Assembly: GCA_964016885.1 (NCBI GenBank)
Contig: OZ024740.1
Span: 53,754,001 to 53,818,000 of the forward strand
From: Eledone cirrhosa
Taxonomy: Eukaryota
DNA length: 64,000 bases
Direction of reading: 5' to 3'
A program made the position numbers and the translations under genes. Of this stretch, positions 2,843-61,711 are shown piece after piece (within the stretch, counting starts at the first letter, position 1; every line of letters begins with the position of its first letter). A model generated the notes under the pieces. That model was not told the DNA's origin. It saw only the letters and a program-made list of their open reading frames with translations, and ran no database searches.

Positions 2843-3188
2843 CCTACTCGTTCCTATTACCCACTCTACTACCCTAAGTATTGAGTACTTTGGTGCGTTA
2901 TGGTCCACCTGGTTCCTTACCACATTTCGTTCGTTTTATATATATATATATATATATATATATATATATATATATATATATATATATATATATATATGTA
3001 CATATATACACATATATATCAAAATTAATATAAAAATGGCTTCTACAGGACTAGAACTATTCATTCGAACGAAATCCTCACACACACACACATATATATA
3101 TATATATATATCCAGGGAGTTTAAGGTGAAGTTACCGTAGGTGAGAACTCGATGTTTAGTTTCACGTCAGTGTCATTACTACAACAGA

Positions 3189-3273
3189 GGTCCGATGAGC
3201 TTTTGATTCCAGAGTCGGGCCAGATTGACATGGATCGAACCGTGAGCTGATCAATAGTGAAACGCGCGTCACC
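3189..3273 (+). ncRNA. Type I hammerhead ribozyme, U4C core variant
   Basis: GGT-CCGATGA-GCT.TTGAT[insert]ATCAA.AGT-GAAA-CGCGCG-TC-ACC: stem I GGT/ACC, palindromic stem III ACGCGCGT, GUC triplet. Confidence 0.7.
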
Positions 3274-3307
3274 AACCAATAAACGTCTTTATATATATAT
3301 ATATATA

Positions 3308-4030
3308 AAGAATTAGTATATCTACCAACATATTTATACAGAAGTATACTTACGCTAGCAAGATATACGTTTTGACTTAGTAACTTTGTGGTTCAATACA
3401 AAAATGTAGAACAATTATATGAAAGACGTAAAATAAGAAAATTCTAATAATTAACTTAATTTCTTAAGTTTCACTCCAACTACTTAGTTTCTGAAAAGGG
3501 ATATACATAGTGTTCAAAACTATGGAGAATCCTTTCTTCATCAGGGAGTCAATTCTCGGCTAAGATCCCTGGCGATAGGCGGACACAGGGAGATCATACA
3601 AAAATAATTCAGTGAATGGAAAAAAAGCAAGCGCCGACTAAATTTCAAGACACTGAAAATTTCACTGCATTCCTGGTCAGTGGCAAATTTAAAAGAATCA
3701 ATCACGTGACATCGAGGTTAATCAGTGAGGAGTAGGGTTTTAAAAAGTCAGTAGCCAAAATGTTACTATGAACCATAGTAGTAATTTAGGCAAATTTTTG
3801 CTCAACAAAATAATATGGAGGTAATTATAAAGAATTAGTATATCTACCAACATATTTATACAGAAGTATACTTACGCTAGCAAGATATAGGTTTTGTCTT
3901 AGTAACTTTGTGGTTCAATACAAAAATGTAGAACAATTATATGAAAGACGTCCCCTTTCAGAAACTAATTAGTTGGAGTGAAACTTACGTAAGTTAATTA
4001 TTATAATTTTCTTATTTTACGTCTTTCATA
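3308..4030 (-). mobile_element. Family C non-coding element: 522-nt head-to-tail unit plus inverted arm
   Basis: GAATTAGTATATCTACC occurs at 3310 and 3832 (period 522); 3952-4030 is an inverted arm; HHR-like CTGATGA on the minus strand near 3539-3545. Homologous to 14147-14957 and 55891-56316. Confidence 0.8.
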
Positions 4031-4055
4031 TATATATATATATATATATATATAT

Positions 4056-4146
4056 CGTTTCTGAATTTGTTTAGCAAGATTCTTTATCTGAAATCGTGTG
4101 TTGAAACCGATATTGTTATACATGACCCTCCCAAAGTATAACAATA
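4056..4146. mobile_element. Family D PLE two-arm remnant
   Basis: Antisense tail arm (rc of 55750-55815) joined to sense arm CATGACCCTCCCAAAGTATAACAA-(TA)n. Confidence 0.8.
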
Positions 4147-4171
4147 TATATATATACATATATACATATAG

Positions 4172-4416
4172 TTTGAAAGTGAACAACACAAAATATAACT
4201 ACTCCATTACCAAAGGTTTCTTGATCCCAGACAATAATAATATACGTGTGACGACCGATCCAGACGTATATTATTATTGACGTATATTATTATTGTCAGA
4301 ATCCTTTGGTAATGGAGTAGTTATATTTTGTGTTGTTCACTTTCTAATTAAATAGCTGTGTTCTATACATAGAGCACTCTTTTTTTCCTTTGTTTTTCCT
4401 TCGAAATTTCCTAACA
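4172..4416. mobile_element. Family E fold-back remnant
   Basis: Inverted arms GAAAGTGAACAACACAAAATATAACTACTCCATTACCAAAGG / CCTTTGGTAATGGAGTAGTTATATTTTGTGTTGTTCACTTTC plus a tail; homologous to 42000-42247. Confidence 0.8.
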
Positions 4417-4878
4417 TATATATATATATAGTAATAATAATAAATGTGACGACTGAAATCCAAAGAGGGCTCGATAAGGATAAATATATATCAAATATAT
4501 AAGAACCCTAGTGCAAACATTTATTAAAATAACAGATTAATGTTTAAGCAAAAATCGCTGAGATGGGTGAAAGCAGCGATTCTTTGCTTAAACTTTAATC
4601 TGTTATTTTAATTTAAAAAAAAATATATATATATATATATATATATATATATATATATATATATATATATATATATATATTAAAGGGGCAGACCTATCAA
4701 ACCTTAGAATATAATGACATCTAGATTCGTACAGTTTGACAGTCGCTCTCAAATAAAGTATTGTGCCTTCTCTACTTGATGTGAGTGCCTTACATTTTAG
4801 GAAATATATCGATTTTCTCTTTTTCTATCTTTCTTTTTCTCTCACTCTCTCTTTCGCTGTATATATATATTATATATA

Positions 4879-58428: not shown

Positions 58429-58493
58429 TATTTTGTCTGATGAAAGCACACCATAATTTAACTTGGTGTCCTTGAAATATGTATAATGAAATA
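58429..58493 (+). ncRNA. Type I hammerhead ribozyme (family F)
   Basis: TATTTTGT-CTGATGA-AAGCACACCA..TGGTGTCCTT-GAAA-TATGT-ATA-ATGAAATA. Confidence 0.8.
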
Positions 58494-58552
58494 AATATGG
58501 TTTTATAAATATAGTTTCCATTTGTTAATATCGTATATATATATATATATAT

Positions 58553-58860
58553 ATTTATTAAAATAGCAGATTATCATCGTTTTTTCCCGTTCTTTGCCAG
58601 GGAACGTTTCCACGAACCAAAGTATCGTCTTCCTGTCTTCCTCCGGTTGCAACGTTTTTTGAAATATTCGCTTCTGAGTTCACAGATTGACTTTTTTAGT
58701 TTCAGAAGATCCCGTTAAGGGTGAAAGCAGCGATTCTTTGCTTAAACTTTAATCTGTTATTTTAATAAATATTTGCCCTACAGTTCTTATATATTTGATA
58801 TATATTTATCCTTATCCAGTCCTCTTTGGATTTTAGTCTTCAAATTTATTATTATTACTA
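58553..58860 (+). mobile_element. Family A pLTR with short inverted arm and full tail
   Basis: ATTTATTAAAATAGCAGATTA is an inverted arm; the body is the reverse complement of 36405-36600. Confidence 0.85.
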
Positions 58861-59247
58861 TATATATATATTCCGATGATTTGATCAGAGAGGCACGCAG
58901 TAATTAAGGTCGAGTGACACAATTTCGAGTGATCAGCAGCCTTTAGACTCACTTGATCAATCAACAATTGTTAATACTATAAATAAAACCCTTTTTGTAC
59001 AGCCGACCATGTTATTCTTCACACTTTCACTATATATATATATATATATATATATATATATATATATATATATATATATATATATATATATATATATATG
59101 TGTGTGTGTGTGTGTTAGAGGTTATATTTAATCTGTTGGGATACAACGAGCAAAATATTTTTATAACTGATATAAACCACTCAACAAATTATTGGAGTAA
59201 GTATACAATATATTAACAAATGGAAACTATATTTATAAAACCATATT

Positions 59248-59410
59248 TATTTCATTATATATATTTCAAGGGCCACCAGAGAAAACAATGGTGCGCTCTC
59301 ATCAGATAAAATATAATATTTATTTATAAAACTAACCTATATTATATTTTATCTGATGAAAGAGCACCATAGTTTGCTCTGGTGGCCCTTGAAATATGTA
59401 TAATGAAATA
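59248..59410. ncRNA. Back-to-back family F hammerheads (59248-59313 minus, 59345-59410 plus) in fold-back 59116-59452
   Basis: Both show TATTTTAT-CTGATGA-..GCACCA..TGGTGGCCCTT-GAAA-TAT(A/G)T-ATA-ATGAAATA. Confidence 0.8.
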
Positions 59411-60342
59411 AATATGGTTTTATAAATATAGTTTCCATTTGTTAATATATTGTATATATATATAAATATATAAATATATATATATATATATATATATATA
59501 TATATATATATATATATATATATATATATATATATATATATATATATATAAATATATATATATATATATATATATATATATTTGTATATATATATTTATA
59601 TATATATATATATATATACATATATATATATATATATATATATATATATATAGAGAGAGAGAGAGAGAGTGAGAGAGAGAGATTGGTATATTGGTATATG
59701 TGTGTGTGTATATGTCTGAAACTATCTGTGTGTTTTGTATATATATATATATATACCGTTCCTGATAATCTCATTTGAAGAAACCGTTCTTGTTTTGTAG
59801 ATGTCCCTTCCATATATAATAAAATACCTATACTCTACCAACGTATTGAGAATATTTTAAAACTATAATTACCCCAGATACCACTTGGGAACATATATAT
59901 GCACAATTATTAATCTATATAAATATTTATACACTTATAACCTATTGTAATATAATAAGATAAAATAAACTTACAACAATAATTCTTCATATAATCTAAT
60001 TGATTCTATATACAATATTATAACTCATATTATAGCTAAATAAATTTAAATTCTGGAATCATATTCCACCATTTCACCAAATTGTTAATTCCTTTTAAAT
60101 TAAATACAAGCTCGTCTTTCTTTTTTCTTCTTCCTACATACATATATCCTAATTATTTAAATTCTGCATAGCGTCAAAAATAAGTTTTTTTTTAGCCCTA
60201 TACCTCAACCTCATTTGCATACTCAACTTAATAATTTGAAATATCTTACTTTTCTTCTCTTACCCCTTCACTATCCAGGGAAAAACTTTAACAGTTAAGG
60301 TATCTTTCCTTGGTTATGTCAAAATTTATAAAACAAACTTTG

Positions 60343-60403
60343 TATTTTATCTGATGAAAGCGTACCAAGGTTTTGGTACCCTTGAAATATATATAATAGA
60401 ATA
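60343..60403 (+). ncRNA. Type I hammerhead ribozyme (family F)
   Basis: TATTTTAT-CTGATGA-AAGCGTACCAA(GGTT)TTGGTACCCTT-GAAA-TATAT-ATA-ATAGAATA. Confidence 0.85.
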
Positions 60404-61711
60404 AATATGGTTTTATAAATATAGTTTCAATTTATTTAATATCATTGAATATTATACTCCAGGTCGAGTGCTCTGAATCAGTTATAATCCCTTTTGCTTG
60501 TATATATATATATATATACAGAGGTATTCACAGTAAGTTGTGGGGTCTATTTTGCATGAAGAACTCGATGTAATCCATATGTTGAAAATGTTGTAGGTTA
60601 AGATAAATCTCGGAAAACAATAAAACATTAAAAGGAAAGCAGAGTCATGATATAAGTTAAAACAATTAAATAAAAAATCAAGTCATTAGATATATACTTC
60701 ACTGCTTTACGATCGTTTCTAGATGAAGATAATACATTGTAGCTAGACTCAGTATTTGATCTATGTAAGGTTAGTTACAAACTATCAGATAAAGAGAATA
60801 TTTACTTACATGCATATCACCAGCTGATTTCAAAAGCAATAATAATTTTTATTGAATAATGATTTTATTCAGAATTAGTAGTATGTTAGTATAATGTCCT
60901 TATTTGGAGGTGGTTGAAGAACTAGCGAATCAAATTGTTTTTTTCATATGGTGTTAAGATGAAAAGTAATATACTTTAGTTGAGGTCATGACCTTTGAAA
61001 GGAATGGTTGAGGCGTGTTAATAGTAGATTTGGCATAAAAATCTATTAGGAGGAAAGGGATTGTCAAACTGATAGTTGAATGTATCTGGTATAGTGAAGT
61101 TAAAAAGAATGTCAAAATAAATGGTGATTAGTGTTGTATTGAGTTTCAAGGTGAATATAAATTAAGGTTATGGCCAGGAAAGTTAGTATATTAAGAGATG
61201 AAAATTATAATAAGATAATTAAATACAGTAATGCGATAATATACAACTTAACCAACACAATATAGTACTGTGTGGTAAATTGAATTTAGTATAATATAGC
61301 ATATGATACGCTCTAAAATACTATCAAGTATGTTTATGCATAAATAATCAAACTCAGATAAATACAGGTTGGCATATTTAAAACACATAAATTTCATAGA
61401 TTACAAAGTGCATATACCCACACTATATATATAGAGAGGTACAGTTAAATTGATATCCAACCAAAAATATACATATGCACAAATAGACGCAAATCTAAAT
61501 ACACATTTACACGCATGCATATAATCATATACATACATATCCATACATATCTATATCCACATACACATCTATACCCACATATATACATATATATACACAC
61601 GCACACACTCATACATACATATATATATATATATATATACACACACACACATATATATATATATACATATACATATATATATATATATGTATATATATAT
61701 ATATATATATG

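Follow-up and report, generated by a model that had tools for sequence, protein, structure and literature searches.

The window analyzed here is a 64,000-nt stretch of the Eledone cirrhosa genome (GenBank assembly GCA_964016885.1, contig OZ024740.1, positions 53,754,001 to 53,818,000 of the forward strand). The host genome is 3.0 Gb and AT-rich, and the window is dense in (TA)n tracts. An initial annotation had noted a GAG(T/C)(A/G)CT motif near the 3′ ends of several repeat families, designated here by letter. Comparison of their copies identifies this motif as the 3′ strand of a predicted bulged stem-loop, consisting of an RCTC arm, an inner hairpin, a 2-nt bulge, GAGY, and RCT. In full elements two such stems lie between a putative hammerhead ribozyme and the ATG of an open reading frame (ORF), 57–82 nt apart as measured in 18 metagenome families. 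The following features of the window are discussed below.

2863..2890, + strand: family B stem 1 (ACTC arm, inner hairpin, TT bulge, GAGT, ACTT)
2750..2840, + strand: putative family B hammerhead-like motif with a long stem II, upstream of stem 1, recognized by eye
15671..15698, + strand: family B stem 1
56895..56922, + strand: family B stem 1
1584..1611, − strand: family B stem 1, absent from the list of the initial annotation
52370..52392, + strand: family M stem 1; putative hammerhead core at 52304-52326
41930..41952, − strand: family M stem 1, second copy
40141..40164, − strand: family H stem 1 (arm AGTC here, ACTC in most copies); putative hammerhead core at 40214-40235
46205..46228, − strand: H-related stem 1
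4940..4964, − strand: family F stem 1; putative hammerhead core at 5033-5069
60456..60473, + strand: family F stem 1 with a shortened loop; putative hammerhead core at 60351-60387
4355..4379, + strand: family E stem 1 (arm GCTG here, GCTC in most copies)
4465..4514, − strand: family A stem 1 with a long AT-rich loop (arm GCAC here, GCTC in most copies)
3387..3412, − strand: family C stem 1 with compensatory GTTC/GAAC; second copy at ~3909-3934
3800..3821, − strand: family C stem 2 at a head-to-tail junction, ~8 nt after the tailed end
14548..14569, + strand: family C stem 2 at another junction
44925..44964, − strand: family O stem 1 (GCTC/GAGC)
45754..45771, − strand: family O stem 2 with compensatory TCTC/GAGA
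15991..16020, + strand: stem 1 of a further family, 5-bp inner helix
18054..18093, + strand: family K stem 1; K tandem junctions elsewhere carry stem 2
28702..28730, + strand: stem 1 of a further family, 5-bp inner helix
37417..38403, − strand: 5′-truncated ORF of a predicted Hydra-clade Penelope-like element (PLE)
36404..37416, − strand: 3′ untranslated region (UTR) and pseudo-long terminal repeat (pLTR) of the same element (family A), a copy of the short-ended type, terminating immediately before stem 1; variant hammerhead core at 36450-36473

The ORF fragment at 37417..38403 retains the C-terminal part of a reverse transcriptase (RT), a CxCX5C linker, and a GIY-YIG-type endonuclease, and its 3′ UTR runs into family A. 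Pfam returned no match for this 329-aa fragment, and among six window frames it matched only an RVT_1 fragment of a long interspersed element (LINE). The linker is the defining mark of the Hydra clade and places the fragment there; further marks of the clade are CxxC and CxH near the C-terminus of the endonuclease, RWK, and DKT in place of DKG (PMC8557442). Family A has many genome copies at 95–98% identity, some with a 713-residue open frame in which RT motifs and a C-terminal VYKC..AYIG endonuclease region can be recognized by eye within a single ORF, and its protein has 1249 relatives at E ≤ 1e-30. The family A protein P0002 contains the linker CNCRNRADC together with CDLC and CKH near the endonuclease C-terminus, corresponding to CxCX5C, CxxC, and CxH, respectively; among the RT motifs, RWR and NKT are read in one copy (L145) and DKT is legible in another (L162). 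When 30 copies were inspected, 29 ended in (TA)n and one read through in tandem. By these protein motifs and its layout, we assign the family A element to the Hydra-clade PLEs.

Families B, F, H, and M are linked to Hydra-type ORFs as well, with an endonuclease end at most 1.4 kb upstream in 12, 4, 5, and 2 matches, respectively, and in B, F, and M the start of an ORF follows the junction. The motif-bearing families, which had been taken to be unrelated, are thus mostly pLTR ends of Hydra-clade PLEs. For C, E, and O, links to a Hydra-type ORF were found in 1 of 84, 0 of 63, and 0 of 23 matches; judging from the same stem and two-end layout, these are likely non-autonomous derivatives. Putative hammerhead cores of canonical appearance are present in F, H, and M. 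In family A the core is a variant, CAGAAGA..GAAA, with CAGAAGA replacing CTGANGA in all young copies inspected (L140-L169 and window 36450-36473, − strand), and the predicted cores of B (CTGAGAAG, with the long stem II) and C also deviate from CTGANGA. Twin-stem junctions of family K recur every ~1.3 kb as a tandem array at G000:C1:130883312-130891289, with no Hydra ORF after the K junction in L421. A satellite at L400-L403 (G000:C1 near 14.24 Mb) has a ~58-nt unit derived from the family B tail and carries a single stem.

All 15 GAG motif sites quoted in the initial annotation were located in the window sequence, as was the 14-mer shared by families C and O, in five copies that all lie on the minus strand. 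Although the tails of C and O were said not to align outside the motif, they can be aligned at 71% over 117 nt; the shared 14-mer represents the same stem-loop. Additional tails had been cited, of which those at 16010, 18085, and 28721 belong to repeat families with a full stem. GAG[TC][AG]C[TC] occurs 15–100 nt upstream of (TA)≥5 in 18 of 108 window ends (2.9% expected) and, elsewhere in the genome, in 42 of the 358 ends covered by 40 blind samples of 10 kb each, 400 kb in all (2.3% expected), where these counts take every flank of a (TA)≥5 tract and include copies of the same family. The enrichment is found 40–60 nt ahead of (TA)n tracts and peaks at 50–59 nt. Antisense counts are raised too (8 in the window and 22 in the samples) because the motif is near-palindromic. 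A motif-anchored search yielded 183 matches in 51 clusters, of which 16 were multi-copy, 2 of these being antisense readings.

To assess conservation beyond this genome, we used 79 marine metagenome loci of ~40% protein identity, grouped into 65 families at 78% nucleotide identity, of which 34 include 130 nt upstream of the ORF and formed the junction test set. The motif appears twice in 23 of these families, once in 7, and not at all in the other 4, giving 53 junction motifs compared with a mean of 1.5 and a maximum of 5 in 200 shuffles. An RCTC arm accompanies 47 of the 52 motifs that were scored (14 expected). With the bulge set at 2 nt, 43 of 47 motifs have a Watson-Crick first inner pair, compared with 0, 2, 8, and 10 for bulges of 0, 1, 3, and 4 nt. 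In stem 1, the four inner positions are paired in 34/36, 29/34, 23/27, and 16/21 cases, against 26, 17.5, 11, and 9 after shuffling. The outer pairs change together between families, as ACTC/GAGT, GCTC/GAGC, GTTC/GAAC (C), TCTC/GAGA (O stem 2), and GCAC/GTGC (M stem 2). Within helices G-U outnumbers A-C by 7 to 1, an excess that points to sense-strand RNA. Stem 2 loops in some families (the L145 junction, L334, and L173) take UUCG and GTAA tetraloop-like forms, consistent with RNA hairpins. Although the arm is mutated in the window copies of A, E, and H, it is intact in most other copies.

Six consensus sequences published with the description of the Hydra clade (PMC8557442) were inspected by eye; stems are clear in 3, variant in 1, and doubtful in 1, and those that carry them come from coral, sea cucumber, and sea louse. 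Among 30 GIY-YIG loci of Neptune/Nematis-type PLEs in the same genome, 29 had no descriptor match within 1.5 kb after the endonuclease and the single match was a neighboring family A junction; these loci represent few families, with true ends confirmed for only some. Rfam gave no matches in the window at gathering scores and none at E ≤ 1 in three twin-stem metagenome loci, and none of 13 pattern matches in viral contigs was confirmed. Genome-wide, the twin pattern has 1062 matches compared with 240 for a reversed control; a Hydra ORF follows at 21 of the first 30 loci, which are nonetheless weak as independent support because family A accounts for 17.

The ends of the insertions follow the two stems. 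Of 30 family A copies, 11 have a short end, 18 end ~90 nt further on, and one reads through; at the tandem junction, the second stem stands directly after the long end and before the ATG. The prediction drawn from family A, that a stem 2 follows the tailed end, held in B and then in C, O, K, P, Q, and N, while stem 2 is decayed or variant in F and M. Each family has two sharp 3′-end peaks, separated by tails of ~55–115 nt; for the family B copy at 2863, short ends map 8 nt before the arm and the tailed end lies at ~2934. The first T of the overlap with (TA)n is 5–8 nt from the 5′ arm in 15 of 18 family-by-stem cases, over loops of 6 to 37 nt, and the standard deviation of the end distance is 3.4 nt relative to the 5′ arm versus 8.2 nt relative to the palindrome. 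In the metagenome set, alignment provided 25 rows, of which 9 at contig ends were set aside; 12 of the 16 informative ends stop 2–6 nt (last shared base) before an arm. In family A, the site before the arm accounts for 38 ends, whereas a longer TATATA inside the stem 1 loop accounts for only 6. In families E and F, (CA)n, (TG)n, or (TC)n frequently takes the place of (TA)n at the end (L342-L368, L252-L271).

Two-armed insertions nearly always combine one end of each type. Among 150 such insertions from eight families, a short end is accompanied by a tailed one in 145, and in the window and blind samples this is so in 34 of 35, where 50% would be expected if the two ends were independent, short (72) and tailed (80) ends being about equally common. 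The long, ORF-bearing arm of family A may carry either end type.

We thus observe structure by covariation, duplication of that structure, end positions that track it, overlap with TA, and one-of-each pairing, and from comparison of these sequences the twin stems are probably RNA docking sites that position the RT of the element. A tandem copy would be transcribed through its junction, and the RT-endonuclease protein, possibly as a dimer, would bind both stems. The protein would cut both strands of a (TA)n target, whereupon each 3′ end could pair with UA located 5–8 nt upstream of one 5′ arm and prime synthesis. Of the two resulting cDNAs, that begun at site 1 would yield a short end without a stem and that begun at site 2 a tailed end with stem 1; the two would then be joined head to head. 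The tail would be the stretch between the two start sites, and the GAG motif first noted would be stem 1 carried within it. Whether the process amounts to programmed twin priming, in which stems about one protein footprint apart load an RT dimer onto one RNA and set a start for each side of a (TA)n double-strand cut, we consider evenly balanced.

Among the three roles suggested in the initial annotation, namely an RT/endonuclease docking site, a promoter element, and a 3′-end signal, docking is best supported and the other two are minor rivals; the broader claim of a conserved cis-element is supported. The analysis goes beyond that proposal in the covarying stem-loop, in a second copy that is usually absent from insertions, in the PLE identity, and in ends that keep a fixed distance from the 5′ arm and not from GAG.

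Several results weigh against docking by twin stems or qualify the initial observation. By the strict pattern, 4 of the 34 metagenome families lack the motif, and the shuffling from which the stem 1 covariation is judged (P ≤ 0.0002) ignores relatedness. Stem 2 of the metagenome families, mostly one C-G pair and a loop, has no covariation beyond that conserved pair; no stem 2 was found for E, and H has only a doubtful candidate. Thermodynamically the stems are marginal: in single-sequence folding, which is not discriminating, 4 of 9 formed as drawn, another 4 failed to form, and 1 formed in part (z ranging from −2.2 to +0.25). No stem is visible by eye in the published Hydra-1_Obim consensus. 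The end distances have outliers, at 2 nt before the arm in E, 12 nt for stem 2 of O, and mostly 16–19 nt for the short ends of M; in this measurement F stem 1 was left out, and six variant arms as well as the anchors were picked by hand. Of the 16 informative metagenome ends, 4 miss. The enrichment near (TA)n ends was not matched in a blind k-mer test with one representative for each of 472 end clusters, which did not single out the GAG motif (best related 5-mers TGCTC, p = 0.009, and TTGAG, p = 0.014, uncorrected), because most TA-flanking ends belong to other element classes. Among 342 other loci of the genome, no copy related to the cited tails at 4782, 13512, and 44763 was found; these tails also fail to match the descriptor and are unsupported. 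Finally, PAc, a Poseidon element of Anolis whose biochemistry the proposed mechanism matches, belongs to another clade and is not known to carry the twin-stem motif.

The stems might instead be signals for RNA 3′-end formation, such that a nuclease or termination leaves RNA ends before stem 1 or stem 2 and the RT starts there. Element ends at a fixed distance from the stems would fit, as would the AATAAA at the family A short end. We regard this as unlikely: the short ends of B, C, F, and H have no AATAAA, stem 1 is intact in tailed copies, the near-invariable pairing of a short with a tailed end is hard to obtain from two independent RNA species, and PAc starts internally (PMC11167929).

A role in expression, with the stems acting as an internal promoter or as the translation leader of the hammerhead-cut RNA and the nearby ends being incidental, would agree with the position of stem 2 ~19–55 nt before the ATG and with Drosophila Penelope, whose promoter is reported to be internal, with regulatory sequence around the 34-bp repeat (PMC2377424). 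In C, O, and K no Hydra ORF was found after stem 2, yet these families keep both stems with compensatory changes; each of the two ends follows its own stem, and pairing covariation is unexpected for a DNA promoter element. Expression as the sole function is therefore quite unlikely, and the stems may have a second role of this kind.

The near-palindromic nature of GAGYRCTC, evident in the antisense counts, raises the prospect of a DNA site for the element endonuclease or an RNA self-dimerization sequence, and the Penelope tail is reportedly needed for endonuclease cleavage (as cited in PMC11167929). The last base is free, however (ACTC 24, ACTT 12, ACTG 6, and ACTA 3; n = 47), C and O keep the stem while losing the palindrome, and the common form GAGCACTC would contain two central C-A mismatches as an RNA dimer. 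The ends, moreover, follow the 5′ arm, and we find either form of this proposal decidedly improbable. That the motif is a functionless product of chance and residual homology among decayed repeats is hardly credible, given 53 motifs where 1.5 are expected at ~40% protein identity, covariation, and fixed end distances, even though the loose descriptor matched 89 times against 23–48 by chance per 790 kb, three cited sites are unsupported, and the blind k-mer test was negative.

Three other identities were rejected: part of the hammerhead core, since the motif lies 30–130 nt downstream of it; an RNA polymerase III B box, whose consensus the motif does not fit; and a subterminal repeat of a miniature inverted-repeat transposable element, since the motif is at one end only and is linked to RT ORFs. 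Elsewhere in the window, the RVT_1 LINE fragment (62729-63205, − strand) comes with motif matches at 62457 and 63188, apparently by chance. A tRNA-like short interspersed element family of 85–93% identity, unrelated to the motif, is present at 9023-9179, 10769-10960, 19709-19897, 28485-28687, 47620-47787, and 54234-54435.

The Hydra clade (Craig et al. 2021, PMC8557442) comprises PLEs with a C-terminal endonuclease, a single RT-GIY-YIG ORF with the CxCX5C linker, a pLTR hammerhead, and (TA)n targets, whose insertions include partial tandems, an inverted 5′-truncated arm, and a one-ended tail; the elements described here resemble them in each of these respects, with hammerheads that are putative. 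Published tails in that clade measure 30–40 nt, shorter than those in this genome, and the available text of that study describes neither the pair of junction stem-loops nor the end rule. For PAc (Frangieh et al. 2024, PMC11167929), the RT was reported to start internally at two sites bounding the tail, with both strands cut and extended, an AT-rich target, a predicted dimer, and a required RNA that reaches 3′ of the start sites. Two tail-bounding end sites and an AT-rich target are common to both systems, those of E. cirrhosa being deduced from insertion ends. In PAc, an AC-rich stem-loop within the ORF contains the start sites; its binding motif was not identified, and the accessible part of that report mentions no conserved duplicated structure (PMC11167929). 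Families C, O, and K resemble the non-LTR retrozymes, short hammerhead-bearing tandem repeats that have been proposed to be non-autonomous PLE derivatives (PMC7229834; bioRxiv 10.64898/2026.07.22.740005). In the available portions of those sources, retrozymes are tied to PLEs by distribution and pLTR similarity and not by a retained RT-recognition structure.

We found no description of the twin stems in the literature searched; Repbase or Dfam notes and subscription papers, which were outside that search, may mention them. This cis-acting RNA structure, which belongs to a known clade of retroelements, is apparently undescribed. Template choice by PLEs and the origin of their one-sided tail and inverted arm have long been open questions, and the sole full-length in vitro study, that of PAc, found two internal start sites but not their signal. 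Across a whole clade, both ends can here be predicted from a short RNA structure that is conserved and covaries. The stems also provide a marker for non-autonomous partners of the Hydra elements, which occur in great numbers in this genome. If the proposed mechanism is correct, twin priming would explain both the one-sided tail and the inverted arm, and a portable signal of ~100 nt would direct RNA-templated insertion into TA repeats.

In R2, in the L2/eel UnaL2 LINEs, and in their short interspersed elements, a structured 3′ UTR RNA bound by the RT fixes the start of copying. The LINE stem-loop sits 5′ of the start site and is copied, whereas the stems described here lie 3′ of the start and are duplicated, with the second copy excluded from the insertion. 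Twin priming by L1 also gives inverted arms, but its second priming is not known to use a fixed site. In telomerase the template boundary, a structured RNA element, sets the limits of copying and is comparable in role. The twin stems therefore offer a point of comparison for template positioning in telomerase and, if they act as proposed, would give one of its relatives a defined template-positioning RNA downstream of the copied region.

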